The notes under the pieces are model-generated. The model had not been told where the DNA came from. It searched no databases and saw nothing but the letters and a program-made list of their open reading frames with translations. Position numbers and translations under genes: made by a program. Below, piece after piece: positions 215-33,190 of a stretch of DNA of 64,000 nucleotides. How positions within the stretch are numbered: the stretch's first letter is position 1; each line of letters begins with the position of its first letter. Where the stretch lies: assembly GCF_016026235.1 (NCBI RefSeq), contig NZ_CP065613.1. One strand, 5' to 3'. Origin of the DNA: Escherichia coli. Its GTDB lineage: Bacteria > Pseudomonadota > Gammaproteobacteria > Enterobacterales > Enterobacteriaceae.

Positions 215-976
215 CTATTCTGGGTTGAACTGCGGATTCGCCAACATAAAGCCGCCATCCACTATCAACGACTGCCCGGTGGTGTAATTTGCGCCCTCCG
301 AACAAAGCCACGCCACCAGGCTGGCAATCTCATACGTTGCGCCAAAACGCCGCAGAGGAATCGAAGGCTCCGCGTCGGGCTTCACGTCGCTATCATCCAT
401 GCCGTTCATTGGCGTAGCGATCGCCCCAGGTGCGACTGCGTTCACCAAAATCTTATGCCTGACCAACTCCAGCGCCATTGCTTTGGTTAACCCGCCGAGC
501 GCATGTTTAGCGGCTGTGTAGGCGCTGGCATCCGGCAGCGGCGTATGTTCATGTACCGACGTAATGTTGATGATGCGACCACCCTGCCCTTGTTTCACCA
601 TCTGGCGGGCCGCAATTTGTGAGCATAAAAATGCACCATCGACATCAACGGTAAAAATCTTGCGCCACTCATCGAAAGCCATATCAAGAAACGGCGCTTT
701 GGTCATTGCGCCCGCATTATTCACCAGCACATCAATACGCCCCAGCCGTTGAATGAGTTTCTCCAGCGCCTGTGCACCTTCTGGCAGTTTACCGAGATCC
801 AGCTGCACAATCTCCGCACGTACGCCGTGGCTAACTACCTCACGCGCGGTATCTTTTGCCCCTTCTTCATCTGAGTGCCAGGTAATGCCAATATCAAACC
901 CTTGCTGCGCCAGTAATAACGCGCACTCTTTGCCGATCCCCGAATCGGAGGCGGTAATAATCGCAACCTGTGCCAT
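215..976 (-). CDS. yohF: SDR-family oxidoreductase YohF
   Basis: ORF 215..988 (GTG at 988); likely ATG at 976 (MAQVAIITASDSGIGK...) with GGAG 8 nt upstream; glycine-rich Rossmann motif TASDSGIGK. Confidence 0.9.
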   Translation of the reverse strand: MAQVAIITASDSGIGKECALLLAQQGFDIGITWHSDEEGAKDTAREVVSHGVRAEIVQLDLGKLPEGAQALEKLIQRLGRIDVLVNNAGAMTKAPFLDMAFDEWRKIFTVDVDGAFLCSQIAARQMVKQGQGGRIINITSVHEHTPLPDASAYTAAKHALGGLTKAMALELVRHKILVNAVAPGAIATPMNGMDDSDVKPDAEPSIPLRRFGATYEIASLVAWLCSEGANYTTGQSLIVDGGFMLANPQFNPE

Positions 977-22445: not shown

Positions 22446-23327
22446 TTAACGCGGCACATTTGCGGGATCGCAATAGTCCAGAAAGCGCCGTAGCGCGTTG
22501 GAAAGGTGTTTTTGCCGATGATGTATACGCCACAACGTACGCATCAGGCGCGGCAGAGGGACCGCAACTTCACTTAATGTGCCTGCCTGCAATTGATCTT
22601 CAATCACCCGTCGCGACAGGCAACTAATTCCCAACCCATGACGCACCGCATGTTTGATTGCCTCGGAGTTACCTAATTCCATCGCCATCTCAAACTTCGG
22701 TAAATGTGACAGCAACAGATAATCGACAATCTCCCGCGTGCCGGAGCCGCGTTCACGCAGGATCCACGGCGCAGCGGCCAGCTGTTCTAAGGTGACCGGA
22801 CCACGGGCAAACGGCGAAGTCGGCGCGGCGAAAACCACCAGCTCGTCTTCCAGCCACGGTTCAGAAATGATTTCAGTGCTGTGGCACGGTCCTTCAATAA
22901 AGCCAATATCAACGCGGAAATCCAGCACCGCTTGCATCACGTCCTGGCTGTTCCCAACGCTAAGTTCAATCGGCAACTGCGGATAATCATGGCGATAACG
23001 GGCGATAACTGCAGACAGAATGTAGTTACCGATGGTACTACTGGCATAGATACGAATCGCGCCGTTGTCTTCGCGAAACAGTTGTTCGATTTCAACCGCC
23101 TGTTCAAGCAATGCCAACGCACGCGGATAGAGCAGCCGCCCGTGTTCATTAACAACCAGTCTTTTCCCCACGCGATCAAACAGTTGCACGCCAAGCTGCC
23201 CTTCCAGGTCGGTCAAGGCTGCGCTCACTGCTGATTGCGACAACGCCAGCATCACCGACGCCTGGGTGGTTGATCCACTTTTCAATACTTCTGCAAAAAC
23301 TTCCAACTGCCGGAGGGTGATGTGCAT
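22446..23327 (-). CDS. yeiE: LysR-family transcriptional regulator YeiE
   Basis: 293-aa ORF with N-terminal HTH, divergent from yeiH. Confidence 0.9.
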
Positions 23328-24548: not shown

Positions 24549-25406
24549 ATGAAATACATTGGAGCGCACGTTAGTGCTGCTGGCGGTCTGGCAAATGCCG
24601 CAATTCGCGCCGCCGAAATCGACGCAACCGCGTTTGCCTTGTTCACCAAAAACCAACGTCAGTGGCGTGCCGCACCGCTCACGACGCAAACCATCGATGA
24701 ATTCAAAGCCGCCTGTGAAAAATATCACTACACATCGGCGCAAATTCTTCCCCACGACAGTTATCTGATTAACCTCGGACATCCGGTCACTGAAGCTCTG
24801 GAAAAATCGCGCGATGCCTTTATAGATGAAATGCAGCGTTGCGAACAGCTGGGGCTTTCTTTGCTCAACTTCCACCCTGGCAGCCATCTGATGCAGATTT
24901 CAGAAGAGGATTGCCTTGCGCGTATTGCCGAATCCATCAACATTGCGCTGGATAAAACTCAAGGTGTGACTGCGGTGATTGAAAACACCGCCGGTCAGGG
25001 CAGTAACTTAGGGTTTAAATTCGAACATCTCGCGGCGATTATCGACGGCGTGGAAGATAAATCCCGTGTCGGCGTCTGCATTGATACCTGCCATGCTTTC
25101 GCTGCCGGGTATGATTTGCGTACTCCAGCCGAATGCGAGAAAACGTTCGCTGATTTTGCCCGTATTGTCGGCTTTAAGTATCTGCGCGGGATGCACCTTA
25201 ACGATGCGAAAAGCACCTTTGGCAGCCGCGTTGACCGCCATCATAGCCTCGGTGCAGGCAATATCGGTCATGATGCGTTCCGCTGGATCATGCAGGACGA
25301 CCGTTTCGACGGCATTCCGCTGATCCTTGAAACCATCAACCCGGATATCTGGGCAGAAGAGATCGCCTGGCTGAAAGCGCAACAAACTGAAAAAGCGGTA
25401 GCCTGA
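24549..25406 (+). CDS. nfo: Endonuclease IV (AP endonuclease)
   Basis: 285-aa [26 protein letters not shown]..., TIM-barrel AP endonuclease. Confidence 0.95.
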
Positions 25407-25408
25407 AG

Positions 25409-26497
25409 ATGAATAACCGGGAAAAGGAGATCCTTGCAATTTTACGGCGTAACCCGCTGATTCAGCAGAACGAAATTGCGGACATGCTGCAAATCAGTCG
25501 TTCGCGCGTTGCGGCGCATATTATGGATTTAATGCGCAAAGGCCGGATTAAAGGCAAAGGTTACATTCTCACCGAGCAGGAATACTGCGTAGTGGTGGGG
25601 ACAATCAATATGGATATTCGCGGGATGGCGGATATCCATTACCCACAAGCGGCTTCTCATCCCGGTACAATTCATTGCTCGGCGGGCGGCGTGGGTCGCA
25701 ACATCGCCCACAATCTGGCGCTGTTAGGCCGTGACGTCCATTTGCTTTCAGTGATTGGCGATGACTTTTATGGCGAAATGCTCCTGGAAGAAACGCGCCG
25801 TGCCGGCGTGAATGTCTCCGGCTGCGTTCGTTTGCATGGTCAAAGCACATCGACGTATCTGGCAATTGCCAATCGAGACGATCAAACCGTGCTGGCGATT
25901 AACGATACCCATCTGCTGGAACAGTTGACACCGCAACTACTGAACGGGTCGCGCGATTTACTTCGTCATGCGGGCGTGGTACTGGCTGATTGCAACCTGA
26001 CAGCCGAGGCGCTGGAATGGGTCTTTACCCTCGCTGATGAAATCCCGGTGTTTGTCGATACCGTTTCAGAATTCAAAGCGGGCAAAATCAAACACTGGCT
26101 GGCGCATATTCACACCCTGAAACCCACTTTACCGGAGCTGGAAATTTTATGGGGACAGGCGATCACCAGCGATGCTGACCGTAATGCCGCAGTGAATGCA
26201 TTGCATCAGCAAGGTGTTCAGCAACTGTTTGTTTATTTGCCCGATGAGTCAGTTTATTGCAGCGAAAAGGATGGAGAACAATTTTTGCTGACCGCGCCAG
26301 CGCATACGACAGTAGACAGTTTTGGTGCTGACGATGGTTTTATGGCGGGCCTGGTATATAGCTTTCTTGAAGGATACAGTTTCCGCGACAGCGCCCGTTT
26401 TGCGGTAGCCTGCGCGGCAATTTCGCGCGCCAGCGGCAGCTTAAACAACCCTACCCTGTCTGCCGATAACGCGCTTTCATTAGTGCCAATGGTGTAA
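25409..26497 (+). CDS. yeiI: Uncharacterised HTH-fused PfkB-family carbohydrate/nucleoside kinase YeiI
   Basis: 362-aa ORF with N-terminal winged-HTH-like segment (EILAILRRNPLIQQNEIADMLQISRSRVAAHI) followed by a PfkB ribokinase-like domain (GGVGRNIA); ATG is 2 nt after the nfo stop. Confidence 0.85.
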   Translation: MNNREKEILAILRRNPLIQQNEIADMLQISRSRVAAHIMDLMRKGRIKGKGYILTEQEYCVVVGTINMDIRGMADIHYPQAASHPGTIHCSAGGVGRNIAHNLALLGRDVHLLSVIGDDFYGEMLLEETRRAGVNVSGCVRLHGQSTSTYLAIANRDDQTVLAINDTHLLEQLTPQLLNGSRDLLRHAGVVLADCNLTAEALEWVFTLADEIPVFVDTVSEFKAGKIKHWLAHIHTLKPTLPELEILWGQAITSDADRNAAVNALHQQGVQQLFVYLPDESVYCSEKDGEQFLLTAPAHTTVDSFGADDGFMAGLVYSFLEGYSFRDSARFAVACAAISRASGSLNNPTLSADNALSLVPMV

Positions 26498-26504
26498 CAA
26501 TGTT

Positions 26505-26538
26505 GCCGGATTCGACGCTTGACCGCATCTTATCCGGC
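26505..26538. repeat. REP-like palindrome downstream of nupX
   Basis: gccggattcgacgcttgaccgcatcttatccggc; closely resembles the unit after psuT (29696-29732). Confidence 0.55.
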
Positions 26539-26552
26539 TCATAAATTGCGCA

Positions 26553-27803
26553 CTACGCTAAACCAATAAAGAATCCTGCAATAGTAGCACTCATCAGGTT
26601 AGAAAGTGTCGCCGCCGCCAGCGCGCGTAAACCAAGTTGGGCGATTTCCGGCGCACGGTGTGGCGCAACCGCAGAAAACGCCCCCACCACCACCCCGATA
26701 GAACCAAAGTTAGCGAAACCGCACAACGCGAAAGAAATAATCGCCACGGTTTTAGCATCCAGAGTGCCACCCGTTTGCAGATATGGCGAGAAATTGAGAT
26801 AAGCGATAAATTCATTGATCGCCAGCTTCTGCCCAATCAAACTCTCGGCAAGATTTGCATCACTCCAGTCAACCCCCATCACCCACGCCAATGGGGCCAA
26901 CAGGTAACCTAAAATGGACTCCAGCGAGGCATGTGCAAAACCAAACCAGCCGCCAACGCCGCCGATAATACCATTAATTAACGCAATGATGGCGACAAAT
27001 GCCATAACAACTGTCGCTACACCGGCGGCGATTTTCAGCCCGGTCATTGCCCCTGTCGCAGCGGCTTCAATAATGCTTTTTGGCGGTGTTTCGGTGAAAG
27101 AGAGGTTATTAAAGGAAACCTGCGAAGATTCCGTAGCCGGGCTTAACAGGCGGGCAAACAAGATCCCGCCTGGGATCGCCATTAACGATGCCGCCAGCAA
27201 ATATTCCACAGGTACGCCCAGGGCGGCGTAACCAATCATTGTCGAACCAGCAATCGAGGCCATGCCACTACAAATCGCTGTAAATAATTCATTGCGATTC
27301 AGACGATCGATAAAGGGTTTGACGATCGCCGGAATTTCGTTTTGCCCGAGGAAAATGGTGGTGACCGCGACGAATGACTCAATCTTGCTGATATTTAATG
27401 CTTTCTGGAATATACCGCCGAGAATGCGAATTAAAATCCCCATCACACCGATGTAGTAGAGAATACTCACCAGTGCAGTGACGAAGATAATTACCGGTAA
27501 TACCCTGAAACCAAAGATAAATCCTGCGCCATCAAACAGCGTGTCCATTTTCGGCCCGACCAGCGAACCGAAGATAAATGCGCTACCCGCGTCGCTGTAC
27601 GCCATCACTTTATGCACGCCAAAAGCGACTTTTTCAGCGACCCAACACCCTGGCGGTAACCAAAGCATAATCCCGCCAATCACGACCTGTAACACTAACG
27701 CCGCGCCAACGGTACGCAGGCTGATCTTCTTCTTGTTTACTGACAGTAAAAACGCAATCGTCAGCAATACCACCATTCCCAGAACACTTCTCATGACATC
27801 CAT
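26553..27803 (-). CDS. nupX: Concentrative nucleoside transporter (CNT family) NupX
   Basis: 416-aa ORF; paralog of psuT in this window (most residues identical by eye). Confidence 0.9.
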   Translation of the reverse strand: MDVMRSVLGMVVLLTIAFLLSVNKKKISLRTVGAALVLQVVIGGIMLWLPPGCWVAEKVAFGVHKVMAYSDAGSAFIFGSLVGPKMDTLFDGAGFIFGFRVLPVIIFVTALVSILYYIGVMGILIRILGGIFQKALNISKIESFVAVTTIFLGQNEIPAIVKPFIDRLNRNELFTAICSGMASIAGSTMIGYAALGVPVEYLLAASLMAIPGGILFARLLSPATESSQVSFNNLSFTETPPKSIIEAAATGAMTGLKIAAGVATVVMAFVAIIALINGIIGGVGGWFGFAHASLESILGYLLAPLAWVMGVDWSDANLAESLIGQKLAINEFIAYLNFSPYLQTGGTLDAKTVAIISFALCGFANFGSIGVVVGAFSAVAPHRAPEIAQLGLRALAAATLSNLMSATIAGFFIGLA

Positions 27804-29742: not shown

Positions 29743-30993
29743 TTACGCCAGACCAATAAAGAACCCGGCAATGGTCGCGCTCATCAGGTTGGAAAGCGTT
29801 GCTGCTGCCAGCGCCCGTAAACCAAGCTGAGCGATTTCCGGTGCACGTTTTGGCGAAATAGCCGAAAATGCGCCAACGACAACACCGATAGAACCAAAGT
29901 TAGCAAAACCACAAAGCGCAAAGGAGATAATCGCAATGGTTTTCACTTCCAGCGTGCCGCCCGTTTGCAGGTATGGGGAGAAACTCAGGTAAGCGACGAA
30001 TTCGTTAATCGCCAGTTTCTGCCCAATCAGGCTACCCGCAAGGTTGGCATCACTCCAGTCCACACCCATGATCCACGCCAGCGGTGCCAGCACATAGCCA
30101 AAAATACTTTCCAGAGAAGCATTGGTAAAACCAAACCAACCGCCAATTCCGCCGATAATGCCATTAATCAGCGCAATAATTGCGACAAACGCCATTACCA
30201 CCGTCGCCACACCGGCGGCGATTTTCAACCCGGTCATCGCACCGCTCGCCGCCGCTTCGATAAAGCTTTTTGGCGGCGTTTCACTGAACGACAGATTTTC
30301 AAATGTGACCTGCGAAGGCTCGGTTGCCGGACTAAGAATACGTGCAAACAAAATACCGCCGGGGATCGCCATCAGCGATGCCGCCAACAGGTAGTCAATT
30401 GGTACGCCCATTCCGGCATAACCAATCATCATCGAACCCGCAATGGACGCCATCCCGCTACAAATTGCGGTAAACAACTCGTTGCGATTCATGCGATCGA
30501 TAAACGGTTTAACGATCGCCGGGATCTCATTTTGCCCGAGGAAAATAGTAGTAACCGCAACAAAAGATTCGATTTTGCTGATGTTGAGGGCTTTCTGGAA
30601 AATGCTGCCAAGGATGCGAATCAGCAGCCCCATCACGCCAATGTAGTACAGCAGACTGATGAGCGCAGTGACGAAGATAATCGCCGGGAGTACGCGAAAG
30701 GCGAAGATAAAGCCTGCGCCATCAAACAGGACATCCATTTTCGGCCCAACCAGCGAACCAAAAATGAAGGCGCTACCGGCATCACTGTAAGACATCACTT
30801 TATGAACACCTAATGCCGCCTGTTCTACTGCCCATTTTCCCGGCGGAAAATAGAGCATGATGCCACCAATAGCGATTTGCAGCAGCAGTGCGGCTCCAAC
30901 CGTGCGCAAACTGATGCTCTTTTTATTTACCGACAACAGAAATGCTATTGCCAGTAACACCACCATCCCCACAACACTTCTCATTATATCCAT
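29743..30993 (-). CDS. psuT: Putative pseudouridine transporter (CNT family)
   Basis: 416-aa ORF; paralog of nupX. Confidence 0.9.
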   Translation of the reverse strand: MDIMRSVVGMVVLLAIAFLLSVNKKSISLRTVGAALLLQIAIGGIMLYFPPGKWAVEQAALGVHKVMSYSDAGSAFIFGSLVGPKMDVLFDGAGFIFAFRVLPAIIFVTALISLLYYIGVMGLLIRILGSIFQKALNISKIESFVAVTTIFLGQNEIPAIVKPFIDRMNRNELFTAICSGMASIAGSMMIGYAGMGVPIDYLLAASLMAIPGGILFARILSPATEPSQVTFENLSFSETPPKSFIEAAASGAMTGLKIAAGVATVVMAFVAIIALINGIIGGIGGWFGFTNASLESIFGYVLAPLAWIMGVDWSDANLAGSLIGQKLAINEFVAYLSFSPYLQTGGTLEVKTIAIISFALCGFANFGSIGVVVGAFSAISPKRAPEIAQLGLRALAAATLSNLMSATIAGFFIGLA

Positions 30994-31086: not shown

Positions 31087-32021
31087 TTAACCCGCGAGAC
31101 GCTGATATTCTTTGGCAATTTCGCTCGCCAGAATGGCGTTGTTGAACACCAGCTGGATGTTGGATTTCAGGCTGTCACCGCCGGTCAGCTCAGCAACGCG
31201 CGCCAGCAGGAATGGCGTACTTTCTTTACCAATAACACCCTGCGCTTCAGCTTCAGCTACCGCCTGATCGCCGCATTGATAGTGTGTTCCGGCATAGCAA
31301 ACTGTTCCGGGATCGGGTTCGCTACCACGAGGCCACCGTTCAGCCCGCTTTGCCATTTCACCGCCATTGCACGGGCAATTTCGCTGGCGCTGTCGAGACG
31401 AATGCTGACGTCAAACGGGCTGGTACGGCAGAAAAACGCAGGCAGCGCTTTAGTCTGATAGCCAATTAACGGCACACCGAAGGTTTCTAAATACTCAGTG
31501 GTTAATCCTAAATCGAGAATAGATTTCGCCCCGGCACAAACAACGGTGACATTAGTATTTGCCAGTTCTTGCAAATCGGCAGAAATATCGAAGGTATGTT
31601 CCGCCCCGCGATGAACACCACCAATTCCCCCGGTGGCAAATACTTTAATTCCGGCAAGCGCCGCAATAATCATCGTTGAAGCCACAGTGGTTGCGCCATT
31701 TTTTCCGGCGGCAACAACAAAAGGTAAATCGCGACGACTAACTTTGGTCACGTTATGCCCTTCACGACCCAGTAATTCAATTTCTTCTTTGCTTAAACCC
31801 ACTTTCATCACGCCACCAATAATGGCGATAGTGGCAGGTACTGCGCCCTGTTTACGAATAGTTTCTTCAACTTCAATTGCGGTCTGGGCATTTTGTGGGA
31901 ACGGCATCCCGTGAGAAATAATGGTCGATTCCAGCGCCACAACCGGTTTTTTGTTTTTTAAAGCGTCCTGCACTTCCGGGGAAATTTGTAATAATTCAGG
32001 GGAAATTTTTAATTCAGACAT
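31087..32021 (-). pseudogene. psuG: Pseudouridine-5'-phosphate glycosidase with a disrupted reading frame
   Basis: N-terminal 252 residues in ORF 31257..32021 (ends ...PEHTINAAIRR*); conserved C-terminal 60 residues DQAVAEAEAQG...EYQRLAG are in another frame (ORF 31087..31356). Frames meet at plus 31261-31274 cgcctgatcgccgc. Confidence 0.75.
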
Positions 32022-32950
32022 TCTGCGTTCTCCACTAACGATATAACGTTGGCAATCGATAAATCGGGGTTATTGGTGTATTCACAGGAGAGCGCCATTG
32101 ACGAACATCCCTGTGCGAAACGAACAGATTCGGCAAACGGCATTCCGTCTACCCAACACGAAGCAAGTCCCGCCATCATGGCATCGCCCGCTCCGGTAAC
32201 ATTAATAACATTGGTTTTGATCGAGGCAGACCAGCCACTTTCACCGCTGATTTCACTGTAATAAACGCCATCGCCGCCCATGCTCAATACCAATCGGTTC
32301 AGGCCATGTTGATGGAACCAGGCAGCAACTTTTGCCACATCTTCACGCCCTGACAGCGCAATCCCACTCAGTGTTTCCGCTTCAAGGCGGTTTGGCTTGA
32401 GAGTATGGATTTGACTTAATCGCTCGCGTACTTTGACGCATTTCCACGCGGAAACCGGATCGACAAATACGGGTACGTTGGCAGCATTATCCAGAATCCA
32501 TGCCAGTGCCTCTTCACTGATATTACAGTCCGCGACAATGACCTTTGCCCTCTGAATAAATTCACGGTGCTGTGCGAGATATTCAGCTGTAATAGCGTTG
32601 CTAATATTCATGTCATTTATAGCAACCAGCATTTCACCAGTATTATCGAGTAATGATAAATAGCTCGACGTATTTTCTCCCGGCACAATCAGGCATTTAT
32701 CGACATAAACGCCAGATTGATTGGTTTGCGTTAGCAGCGATTGGCCATAAAAATCACTGCCTACGGCGCTCAGTAGCCAGGCTTTATTACCCAGCAACGC
32801 CAGGTTTTGTGCAATATTGCGCCCTACCCCACCAGGCGTAAATTTTATTTTACCTGGATTTGAATCCGCATAATTTAATGATTCATGTGAATATCCGGCG
32901 ACATCAATATTCGCCGAGCCTATAATTACGACATAATCCTTTTCGCGCAT
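32009..32950 (-). CDS. psuK: Pseudouridine kinase (PfkB family)
   Basis: 313-aa ORF MREKDYVVIIGSANIDVAGY... with GGVGRNIA motif; overlaps the psuG start by 13 nt. Confidence 0.9.
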   Translation of the reverse strand: MREKDYVVIIGSANIDVAGYSHESLNYADSNPGKIKFTPGGVGRNIAQNLALLGNKAWLLSAVGSDFYGQSLLTQTNQSGVYVDKCLIVPGENTSSYLSLLDNTGEMLVAINDMNISNAITAEYLAQHREFIQRAKVIVADCNISEEALAWILDNAANVPVFVDPVSAWKCVKVRERLSQIHTLKPNRLEAETLSGIALSGREDVAKVAAWFHQHGLNRLVLSMGGDGVYYSEISGESGWSASIKTNVINVTGAGDAMMAGLASCWVDGMPFAESVRFAQGCSSMALSCEYTNNPDLSIANVISLVENAECLN

Positions 32951-33017: not shown

Positions 33018-33053
33018 TTTAAACATGTGTTCATATTTAAACATGTGCTCATA
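33018..33053. repeat. Tandem 18-bp direct repeat upstream of psuK
   Basis: tttaaacatgtgttcata (33018-33035) immediately repeated as tttaaacatgtgctcata (33036-33053), 17/18 identical; a third gcatgt follows at 33058-33063. Confidence 0.6.
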
Positions 33054-33190
33054 GTATGCATGTTTTACGTAAAGTAAATTGCCGCCAGAGAGGCAAAGCG
33101 GGCAGATTTGAGCAGGCTCACAAAATGCGATTAAATGCCAGAATTACAAAAGCGAGGAATTTGTGACGGGATGCACAGAACATGAACACT

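Follow-up and report, generated by a model that had tools for sequence, protein, structure and literature searches.

The yeiI gene and its surroundings

The window (the whole 64,000-nucleotide stretch of Escherichia coli DNA that was analysed) carries yeiI directly behind nfo and, beyond it, nupX, rihB, yeiL, psuT, psuG and psuK, in the order that a preliminary description of this DNA had reported (Table 1). Of 5426 complete E. coli genomes, 5420 carry the gene, which RefSeq labels 'yeiI: sugar kinase'; papers from 2022 and 2025 still treat its product as uncharacterised. One paper mentions YeiI as a LysR-type regulator, apparently a slip for YeiE. Between E. coli and E. albertii, yeiI as a whole has a dN/dS of 0.078 (psuK: 0.061); the part encoding the helix-turn-helix (HTH) has 0.028 and the PfkB part 0.090. 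Pairings with Citrobacter, Enterobacter and Leclercia were left out, as synonymous sites were saturated. The gene is under purifying selection and does not decay.

Table 1. Features of the yeiI–psuK region, with positions counted from the first letter of the window
Feature	Position	Strand	Description	Source
nfo	24549..25406	+	Endonuclease IV; stop TGA 25404-25406	ORF list, RefSeq annotation
yeiI	25409..26497	+	362 aa, ATG start; winged HTH plus pseudouridine-kinase-like domain	ORF list, Pfam, AlphaFold model
Winged HTH, residues 1-48	25409..25552	+		Pfam HTH_24, AlphaFold model
PfkB-fold domain, residues 58-348	25580..26452	+	39% identical to E. coli PsuK; nucleoside pocket intact	
T240-L-P-E243	26126..26137	+	In place of the NxxE Mg/phosphate motif; N in 80/82 kinases, T in 8/8 YeiI	
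Y276-L-P-D-E-S281	26234..26251	+	In place of the small ATP-binding loop S-x-G-x-x-G	Alignment
G306-A-D308-D309	26324..26335	+	In place of GAGD; G in 82/82 kinases, D in 8/8 YeiI	
nupX	26553..27803	-	NupC-family transporter; recent psuT duplicate, not a conserved yeiI neighbour	
psuT	29743..30993	-	Third gene of the proposed target operon	RefSeq annotation
psuG	31087..32021	-	Frameshifted in the window, 4-bp deletion near 31270	
psuK	32009..32950	-	Pseudouridine kinase without HTH, canonical motifs; first gene of the proposed target operon	
Proposed YeiI operator	33020..33051	-	Two palindromes 18 bp apart, directly after the psuK -10	
Operator cores	33040-33049; 33022-33031	-	AGCAcaTGTT; AACAcaTGTT	
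Putative psuK promoter	33051..33078	-	-35 TTTACT 33078-33073, 16-nt spacer, -10 TACTAT 33056-33051	
CRP-like box	33107..33122	-	TGTGA-N6-TCAAA; inferred transcription start about 70 nt downstream	

The nfo–yeiI junction reads ...GCC TGA AG ATG, which bears out the start 2 nt past the nfo stop noted earlier, and a gap of 2–3 nt is retained in all nine nfo-linked loci examined. It was also fair to say that yeiI has no obvious Shine-Dalgarno sequence, because the best pairing with the 16S 3' end in the 22 nt 5' of the gene is weak (–3.2 kcal/mol versus –6.9 for nfo, –8.7 for yeiH and –6.7 for psuK by the same measure). Co-transcription of the two genes is very likely, since a gap of 2–3 nt cannot hold a terminator, and nfo is the most likely source of yeiI transcription. 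In the nfo-linked lineages, read-through from nfo and reinitiation 2 nt after its stop would give yeiI a low level of expression, and the translation of the two genes is possibly coupled. Some independent transcription of yeiI is hinted at by a genomic SELEX study whose list includes a peak of RpoD binding between the two genes (PMC3946193). Our consensus promoter scan found one site with 9 of 12 matches in nfo (25088–25115), yet the total was at chance (4 versus 3.1 expected), and a yeiI promoter inside nfo was rejected, its sole support being the SELEX listing, which gives no hexamers. The linkage with nfo, which the preliminary description called unexplained, is there, but it is lineage-specific (nfo lies 5' of yeiI in 9 of 12 YeiI-type loci) and needs no functional reason beyond a supply of transcription.

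All 12 YeiI-type genes are convergent with psuT-psuG-psuK, and the psuK in question is without an HTH. nupX/rihB stand beside yeiI in just 3 to 4 of the 12 loci: yeiI is directly convergent with psuT-psuG-psuK, with no nupX/rihB, in E. albertii, three Citrobacter, Enterobacter asburiae and Leclercia, and the same layout is found in a Salmonella island, Affinibrenneria and a metagenomic relative. Among E. coli genomes that keep yeiI, about 975 of 5420 (~18%) have no nupX. NupX shares 87.7% amino acid identity with PsuT; therefore the NupX/RihB arrangement, which had been seen as a mirror of PsuT/PsuG, reflects recent duplication plus insertion and no parallel pathway.

A winged helix joined to a kinase-like domain

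The N-terminal winged HTH suspected in YeiI is genuine. A domain search found a MarR/Lrp-like DNA-binding fold at residues 1–48 (Pfam HTH_24, 41.2 bits, cut-off 21.9, E 1.2e–10), and the AlphaFold model (pLDDT 88.5) has helices at residues 3–14, 20–27 and 31–43 and a beta wing at 47–54, followed by the PfkB fold. The recognition helix corresponds to residues 31–43 (RSRVAAHIMDLMR); its R31, S32, V34, A35, H37 and I38 are common to the YeiI clade and to 73 pseudouridine kinases that are themselves fused to an HTH (HTH-PsuK).

The C-terminal part belongs to the ribokinase family, as had been proposed, and profile and fold agree on this: Pfam PfkB (PF00294) matches residues 58–348 with 233.8 bits (cut-off 25.8, E 3.8e–69), and the nearest solved relative is E. 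coli pseudouridine kinase, on which the model superimposes with a TM score of 0.94 and an rmsd of about 2 Å (Foldseek, 7vtd/7vkp). Taking the pseudouridine contacts of PsuK as given in PMC9247573 and PMC9061257, 12 of the 13 listed residues are identical in YeiI (N67, D69, S83, G94, V95, N98, Y150, N196, V219, S220, K223 and D309, equivalent to PsuK N14, D16, S30, G41, V42, N45, Y97, N143, V166, S167, K170 and D256). The sole change, M114 to T, is restricted to the YeiI clade in the alignment. S83, N196 and K223, which correspond to the hallmarks S30, N143 and K170 of the pseudouridine kinase PUKI, are present in all YeiI orthologues, and the N-terminal GG substrate motif is kept as G93-G94. 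YeiI scores 258.2 bits against the NCBIfam pseudouridine kinase model NF007355 (EC 2.7.1.83), below its cut-off of 540, 813 bits against its own equivalog model NF007416 ('sugar kinase') and 103 bits against ribokinase models, whose cut-off is 300. Judged by its residues, the pocket is that of a likely pseudouridine binder and not of a ribose kinase.

The ATP side of the domain is different. We measured motif conservation over 82 related kinases (73 HTH-PsuK and 9 PsuK without HTH) versus 8 aligned YeiI orthologues. The kinases show little or no variation at PsuK N187, S/T223, G226, G229 and G255, whereas all 8 YeiI orthologues have T, Y/C, P/Q/K/E, S and D at these five positions. The glycines of the loop, named as the small ATP-binding loop GXXG in PMC9247573, are found in 80 of 82 (G226) and 82 of 82 kinases (G229), and neither occurs in any YeiI. 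The anion-hole glycine is replaced by Asp308; the catalytic Asp, D309, is retained, and so are E243 and D217. In one relative (P0107), whose locus has the same yeiI/psuT-psuG-psuK layout and an operator pair 5' of psuK, the catalytic Asp is lost too (GIDN). According to PMC12506659, which cites Preumont 2008, a psuK mutant is unable to use pseudouridine, which implies that YeiI does not stand in for the kinase in vivo. The altered ATP-binding and catalytic motifs argue against a dedicated kinase role, and the kinase activity of YeiI is probably weak or absent. Residual or altered activity is conceivable, because D309, E243 and D217 are kept and PROSITE PfkB signature 2 accepts [GD] ahead of the catalytic Asp.

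The psuK promoter and its paired palindromes

The putative psuK promoter is assigned at the level of consensus, and both of its hexamers are conserved in an alignment of nine enterobacterial sequences. It was missed by the generic scan (threshold 9 matches of 12) because TTTACT-16-TACTAT scores lower than that. In the psuK promoter alignment (A2) the TGTGA and TCA of the upstream box are invariant, and by the known consensus this box can tentatively be assigned to CRP. Directly downstream of the –10, the ACA..TGT positions of the palindromes are invariant across the nine enterobacterial psuK promoters, while the central dinucleotide and the rest of the leader vary.

With a paired-site model, 3 pairs were found in the 64-kb window versus 0.33 expected, and the pair at the psuK promoter is the best match. 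No pair lies near nfo, yeiI, nupX, rihB or yeiL. A weaker pair within the yeiE coding sequence (23077–23104) was taken as chance, because it is present in E. coli loci only. It should be noted that specificity was obtained solely with the paired-site model: single-site searches of the window with CACATGTTTAAA and GAACANNTGTTC at up to 2 mismatches gave counts at chance level. Beyond the window, AACAnnTGTT is denser in the last 120 nt before HTH-psuK genes (7.2 per kb) than elsewhere (0.44 per kb), and a stringent search for paired sites over 1.34 Mb gave 35, of which 32 are located directly 5' of HTH-psuK or psuK (shuffled sequence gave 1). The paired motif, with a spacing of about 19 bp, occurs upstream of HTH-psuK genes in other phyla too. 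Its distribution has gaps, as about 30 of 71 HTH-psuK loci, mostly in Clostridia and Aeromonas, have no match to AACAnnTGTT with at most one mismatch, and the Salmonella island has just one good palindrome.

The case for YeiI as the protein that binds the pair is circumstantial, and another factor could do so. YeiL was considered as such a factor and rejected, because yeiL is missing from most operator-bearing loci. Self-regulation of yeiI was rejected as well, since no operator pair was found 5' of those YeiI-type genes that follow an intergenic region of their own (loci L082, L084 and L086; L084 is the Salmonella island).

Origin and probable role of YeiI

In 67 of 73 loci, the gene immediately 5' of psuG encodes an HTH-PsuK protein with intact kinase motifs. 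Proteins of this kind, which form about 100 clusters at 50% identity, are found across Proteobacteria, Clostridia, Spirochaetes and Bacteroidota, with representatives in Hafnia, Serratia, Photorhabdus, Shewanella, Neisseriales and Clostridia, among others. HTH-PsuK very probably represses its own promoter through the two AACAnnTGTT palindromes. In an NJ tree a long stem leads to the YeiI clade, which lies beside the enterobacterial PsuK and HTH-PsuK clades, and the kinase domain of YeiI is 47% identical to that of Hafnia HTH-PsuK, versus 60% for E. coli PsuK. The exact point of duplication is uncertain, because the tree is a simple NJ tree and the YeiI branch is long. In-frame translation of the 120 nt upstream of psuK in 12 loci revealed no HTH remnant. 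We infer that YeiI descends from a self-regulating HTH-PsuK. The ancestor would have had full kinase motifs and headed a psuK-psuG operon, and two copies would have been present in the lineage ancestral to Escherichia, Citrobacter, Enterobacter, Leclercia and their relatives. The copy in the operon, psuK, would then have kept catalysis and not the HTH; the yeiI copy would have kept the HTH and the nucleoside pocket while its phosphoryl-transfer site was rebuilt with acidic or bulky residues.

The reading we favour, with a probability of about 0.6, is that YeiI is a PsuK-derived one-component transcription factor that represses psuKGT until pseudouridine binds and has weak kinase activity or none. 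It builds on the domain architecture, residue substitutions, gene neighbourhoods, motif placement and purifying selection described above, from which we infer that YeiI binds DNA and acts as a repressor, what its ligand is, and that kinase activity has been lost. A YeiI dimer on both palindromes, just past the psuK –10, would block transcription of psuK-psuG-psuT; pseudouridine or a close analogue would enter the retained pocket and alter the geometry of the dimer, as happens in PsuK by way of its Ser30 loop, and the DNA would be released. The upstream CRP-like site would add catabolite control. The suggestion of the preliminary description that YeiI may be a substrate-sensing regulator is thus the one that the sequence evidence favours. 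Our literature search on yeiI, HTH-fused pseudouridine kinases and psuK/psuG regulation returned no description of such a regulator. On the broader proposal, that HTH-PsuK proteins are a widespread class of kinases repressing their own operons via paired AACAnnTGTT and that YeiI is their kinase-impaired enterobacterial descendant and the missing pseudouridine regulator, we would place even odds.

The most serious competitor, though an unlikely one in our view, is a bifunctional YeiI that, on the model of canonical HTH-PsuK, regulates and also phosphorylates pseudouridine or a related modified nucleoside via an unusual TxxE/GADD site. The retained D309, E243, D217, GG motif and entire nucleoside pocket would suit such an enzyme, a machine-learning predictor assigns EC 2.7.1.83 to it, and the clade-specific M114 to T change could alter base specificity. 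Moreover, the altered residues are invariant and under purifying selection, and therefore serve some function. Yet five ATP-side positions that are near-invariant in 82 kinases have changed together, three of the changes placing acidic or bulky side chains at the position of the triphosphate, and the relative without catalytic Asp keeps the same gene layout. A canonical PsuK is always encoded 1–6 kb away, which would make a second kinase redundant, and the reported phenotype of the psuK mutant points the same way.

Two further readings start from the neighbours of yeiI, and we give very little credence to either. The preliminary description took YeiI for the kinase partner of NupX uptake and RihB hydrolysis, acting on released ribose or imported nucleoside and possibly regulating nupX/rihB. 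It is true that yeiI adjoins nupX-rihB in the window and in one other enterobacterial contig and that the ribokinase-family fold is present; but the adjacency is not conserved (8 of 12 loci have neither nupX nor rihB beside yeiI, and nearly a fifth of yeiI-bearing E. coli have lost nupX), nupX is a duplicate of psuT (88%), and no operator pair is found near nupX or rihB in the window. The pocket is of the pseudouridine type, with base-reading N196, K223 and S83 that a ribose kinase would not need, the score against ribokinase models falls well below cut-off, and the ATP motifs are altered, all of which leaves the proposal unsupported. The other reading makes YeiI a partner of nfo in the oxidative-damage response, for example in sensing or processing damaged nucleosides. 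nfo is under SoxS control, and the tight junction, conserved in 9 loci with no terminator between the genes, would agree with a common task. However, the YeiI genes of Affinibrenneria, the Salmonella island and the metagenome (L086) adjoin psuTGK and not nfo, canonical HTH-PsuK is linked to nfo in 0 of 73 loci, and the RpoD peak of PMC3946193 falls between the two genes.

So far yeiI has been called a 'sugar kinase', and automatic predictors make of it a second pseudouridine kinase. Our analysis offers a specific candidate role, that of a pseudouridine-responsive psuKGT repressor, together with a 32-bp target site and residues for mutation, and it draws attention to HTH-fused pseudouridine kinases with a common operator motif as an uncharacterised family across several phyla. 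If the regulatory reading is true, no ligand-sensing transcription factor with a PfkB fold would have been assigned in E. coli before YeiI, and the locus would illustrate duplication followed by division of labour, in which one copy lost the HTH and the other lost catalysis; a bifunctional enzyme-regulator appears to have been split into a pure enzyme and a catalysis-impaired sensor. Regulation of psuK, psuG and psuT is relevant to E. coli engineered to overproduce pseudouridine for mRNA manufacture, and a pseudouridine-responsive repressor/operator pair could serve as a biosensor.

YeiI and known systems

The closest comparison is E. coli PsuK itself (PUKI, YeiC; PDB 7vkp, 7vva), which is encoded in the same gene cluster and has the PfkB fold in common with YeiI (TM 0.94, 39% identity), along with the pocket contacts listed above. 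Unlike PsuK, YeiI carries an additional 54-residue winged HTH, has TxxE for NxxE, PDES for the GxxG loop, GADD for GAGD and T for M114, stays below the NF007355 cut-off (258 versus 540 bits) and does not replace PsuK in vivo. HTH-PsuK resembles YeiI in its two-domain architecture, length, recognition helix, paired AACAnnTGTT promoter motif and association with the psuG pathway. It differs in that all kinase motifs are kept and that it heads its own psuK-psuG operon, on which it would act in cis. In YeiI the motifs are altered, its gene is read from behind nfo, and the target, a psuK without HTH, would be controlled in trans.

Outside this family, Bacillus subtilis PurR consists of a winged helix and a PRPP-sensing domain that has the fold of a phosphoribosyltransferase but no catalytic activity. 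By analogy, it parallels the proposed YeiI in joining a winged HTH to an enzyme fold, in keeping ligand binding while losing catalysis and in controlling its own pathway; the two are not homologous and differ in fold (phosphoribosyltransferase versus PfkB) and in effector. NagC and Mlc of the ROK family are sugar-kinase-fold sensors joined to an HTH, and BirA and NadR combine enzyme activity with repression of their own pathway, a behaviour that is likely to be that of canonical HTH-PsuK. None of the four is homologous to YeiI, their folds being ROK/ASKHA, biotin ligase and NMNAT. Finally, FLN1 and FLN2 of plant plastids are PfkB-type proteins without kinase activity that reside in transcription complexes. 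They are eukaryotic proteins that lack an HTH and, as far as is known, sense no small molecule; still, a PfkB fold with substituted active-site motifs is what they share with YeiI, and they may be seen as a precedent for a non-catalytic role of this fold.

The yeiI gene and its surroundings

The preliminary description had presented yeiI as an ORF 2 nt behind nfo with no obvious Shine-Dalgarno sequence, encoding a winged HTH joined to a ribokinase-family domain, and all of this is correct according to ORF, pairing, Pfam and AlphaFold analyses. The last base of the nfo TGA is 25406 and the first of the yeiI ATG is 25409; the gap is 2-3 nt in 9/9 nfo-linked loci examined, and the best Shine-Dalgarno pairing is weaker for yeiI (-3.2 kcal/mol) than for nfo (-6.9) or yeiH (-8.7). 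Pfam assigns residues 1-48 to HTH_24, over the gathering score, and residues 58-348 to PfkB, while in the AlphaFold model (pLDDT 88.5) a segment of three helices plus a wing precedes a PfkB fold matching that of E. coli pseudouridine kinase (TM 0.94). The domain architecture is already in public annotation, and papers from 2022 and 2025 treat YeiI as uncharacterised. Among the RpoD-binding peaks listed by a genomic SELEX study, one falls between nfo and yeiI (PMC3946193). The 'YeiI' named elsewhere as a LysR-type regulator characterised by ChIP (PMC6698644) looks like an error for yeiE, a gene close by, and could mislead text mining.

The window is E. coli chromosomal DNA, and its gene order is yeiH, nfo, yeiI (+); nupX, rihB (-); yeiL (+); psuT, psuG, psuK (-); then fruAKB. 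NupX is 87.7% identical to PsuT, the pseudouridine transporter, over 416 aa, so nupX looks like a recent duplicate of psuT. About 975 of the 5420 complete E. coli genomes lack a nupX-level match, and one of these carries just a 66-nt nupX remnant.

Coordinates of features in the window and in two compared loci
Feature	Position	Strand	Remark
yeiI	25409-26497	+	ORF, 362 aa
yeiI-nupX convergent spacer	26498-26552		55 nt; GC-rich inverted repeat GCCGGAT...ATCCGGC, resembles REP element or bidirectional terminator
nupX	26553-27803	-	
psuT	29743-30993	-	
psuG	31087-32021	-	4-bp deletion (AATT) near 31270 relative to other E. coli; PsuG truncated at residue 254 of 312
Palindrome pair at psuK	33022-33031 and 33040-33049		best pair in the 64-kb window
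CRP-like box, TGTGA-N6-TCAAA	33107-33122	-	~70 nt upstream of inferred psuK transcription start
Operator-like pair in yeiE coding sequence	23077-23104		GAAACAGTTGTTC...CAACCGCCTGTTCA, 0 and 2 mismatches; ~330 nt upstream of yeiH
HTH-PfkB gene and nucleoside-hydrolase operon, L087	180-5473		dead site, GAAS for GAGD; gene precedes operon
Paired palindrome, L087	1381-1410		intergenic, in front of the downstream operon
Second palindrome pair, L086 (metagenomic YeiI-type locus)	919-946		upstream of a 112-aa gene

Some strains keep yeiI intact while the catabolic genes decay. Besides the psuG deletion in the window, FDAARGOS_943, 100% identical to it in the yeiI region, has psuG split by IS5 and an internal stop codon in psuK. 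E. coli also carries two forms of yeiI, at least 95% identical to that of the window in 3359 genomes and about 81% identical (nucleotide) in 2060, with almost none between. This divergence is unusually deep for a chromosomal gene flanked by nfo conserved at 98-99%; the divergent allele retains the TxxE, acidic-loop and GADD residues.

A retained pocket, an altered ATP side and a constant neighbour

The closest characterised protein to YeiI is PsuK (39% identity), encoded 5.5 kb away. Among the pseudouridine contacts listed in two PsuK structure papers (PMC9247573, PMC9061257), 12 are the same in YeiI (N14, D16, S30, G41, V42, N45, Y97, N143, V166, S167, K170 and D256), and the sole change is PsuK M114 to Thr. 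On the ATP side YeiI has T240-L-P-E for NxxE (PsuK N187), Y-L-P-D-E-S for the small ATP-binding loop S-M-G-G-D-G, and G-A-D308-D309 for GAGD. In 73 HTH-fused relatives and 9 PsuK proteins without an HTH, the five altered positions show little or no variation; the replacements are found in 8/8 aligned YeiI orthologues, and the pattern recurs in about 50 more clusters whose identity to YeiI is 56% or higher. In P0107, a degenerate metagenomic relative, the catalytic Asp is also gone (GIDN). YeiI scores 258 bits against the NCBIfam pseudouridine-kinase model (cut-off 540). It has the PfkB fold and is the paralogue nearest to pseudouridine kinase, but is not filed as one, since it lacks the kinase family's NxxE and GxxG motifs and scores below the equivalog threshold. 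Between E. coli and E. albertii, dN/dS of yeiI is 0.078 overall (HTH 0.028, PfkB domain 0.090; psuK 0.061). The gene is under purifying selection; the site is remodelled rather than decaying.

The HTH-PfkB architecture is common, with about 100 of the top 150 clusters (50% identity) aligning from residue 1. Scanning one genome per species gave 80 loci. Of 73 loci outside the YeiI clade, 67 have a fused gene with canonical motifs that psuG directly follows on the same strand (contig ends account for three of the six exceptions), in taxa including Hafnia, Serratia, Photorhabdus, Gilliamella, Neisseriales, Shewanella, Vibrio, Aeromonas, Clostridia, Spirochaetes and one member of Bacteroidota. Xenorhabdus species (L017, L019, L027) have two or three HTH-PfkB paralogues whose motifs are canonical or GSGD and which do not lie beside psuG. 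In the eight enterobacterial loci yeiH, nfo and yeiI are followed by a convergent psuT-psuG-psuK whose psuK has no HTH; among them only E. coli has the nupX-rihB-yeiL insertion. Four more YeiI-type loci were added: a metagenomic enterobacterial contig with the E. coli gene order, and Affinibrenneria, a Salmonella island and the P0107 locus, where the gene is convergent with psuT-psuG-psuK and nfo is absent. The psu operon adjoins 12/12 of these loci and is therefore the constant partner of yeiI; nfo is found in 9/12, rihB in 4/12 and nupX in 3/12, the last being lower because the second E. coli haplotype retains just the nupX remnant. A neighbour-joining tree of the kinase domain gives YeiI a long stem, adjacent to the enterobacterial clades of PsuK and HTH-PsuK.

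These data bear on what YeiI could be. A functional link to nfo is very improbable, being contradicted by the YeiI-type loci that lack nfo. Equally remote is the earlier proposal of a kinase partner for NupX/RihB, against which stand both the comparative context and the pocket residues. An active bifunctional kinase with unusual motifs has D309, E243 and D217, all kept in YeiI, in its favour, and we regard it as unlikely, though clearly ahead of the other two.

Paired palindromes at psuK promoters

Upstream of psuK the minus strand of the window reads TTTACT-N16-TACTAT-GAGCACATGTTTAAATATGAACACATGTTTAAAC. The HTH-psuK genes of beta- and gamma-proteobacteria, of spirochaetes and of some clostridia have, between promoter and start codon, two palindromes (C/T)AAACAnnTGTTT(G/A) about 19 bp apart. 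With up to one mismatch, AACAnnTGTT has a density of 7.2 per kb in the 120 nt preceding 71 fused genes and of 0.44 per kb in the remainder of those loci. When a stringent rule for paired sites was applied to 1.34 Mb, 35 matches were obtained, of which 32 are immediately 5' to a fused gene or to a psuK without HTH; one match came from shuffled sequence. The paired-site search of the 64-kb window found no operator pair near nfo, yeiI, nupX or rihB.

Four groups of columns do not vary among nine aligned enterobacterial psuK promoters: a CRP-like box (TGTGA-N6-TCA), TTTAC at -35, TA..AT at -10, and the ACA..TGT arms in each of the two palindromes. Elsewhere the leader is variable, as are the dinucleotides at the palindrome centres. 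As the operators start right after the -10 element, repression is indicated. Recognition-helix residues R31, S32, V34, A35, H37 and I38 are common to YeiI and the fused kinases. The invariant CRP-like box suggests catabolite control of pseudouridine catabolism. The weaker pair within yeiE, seen in E. coli loci only, is probably due to chance. Clearly dead catalytic motifs also occur in further HTH-PfkB proteins, that of L087 being one example. Judging from the pairs in L087 and L086, the HTH-PfkB regulator family may exert control beyond psu genes.

YeiI as a putative repressor of the psu operon

From the sequences, neighbourhoods and motif observed here we infer DNA binding, repression, a ligand and loss of catalysis for YeiI. 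Most likely it binds the two psuK-promoter palindromes and represses psuK-psuG-psuT until pseudouridine fills the retained pocket. The earlier interpretation is supported in part: its suggestion of a regulator holds, that of a NupX/RihB kinase does not. The ancestor would have been an HTH-PsuK that regulated itself; duplication would have been followed by loss of the HTH from the operon copy and of the canonical phosphoryl-transfer site from the yeiI copy. Location behind nfo probably provides just low, steady expression. In PsuK, pseudouridine induces dimer changes through the Ser30 loop (PMC9247573, PMC9061257), and in YeiI an allosteric signal could plausibly reach the N-terminal HTH in this way.

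The analysis gives a so far unassigned E. coli gene a proposed role that is specific and testable, and the broad HTH-PsuK family a conserved putative operator. In the open-access literature we found neither a PfkB-fold transcription factor of this kind nor any regulator of a psu operon. YeiI would work like an enzyme-derived one-component regulator. In B. subtilis PurR the sensor is an inactive PRT fold, and in NagC and Mlc it is a kinase fold; BirA and NadR are active enzymes that are also repressors, which is the likely state of canonical HTH-PsuK.
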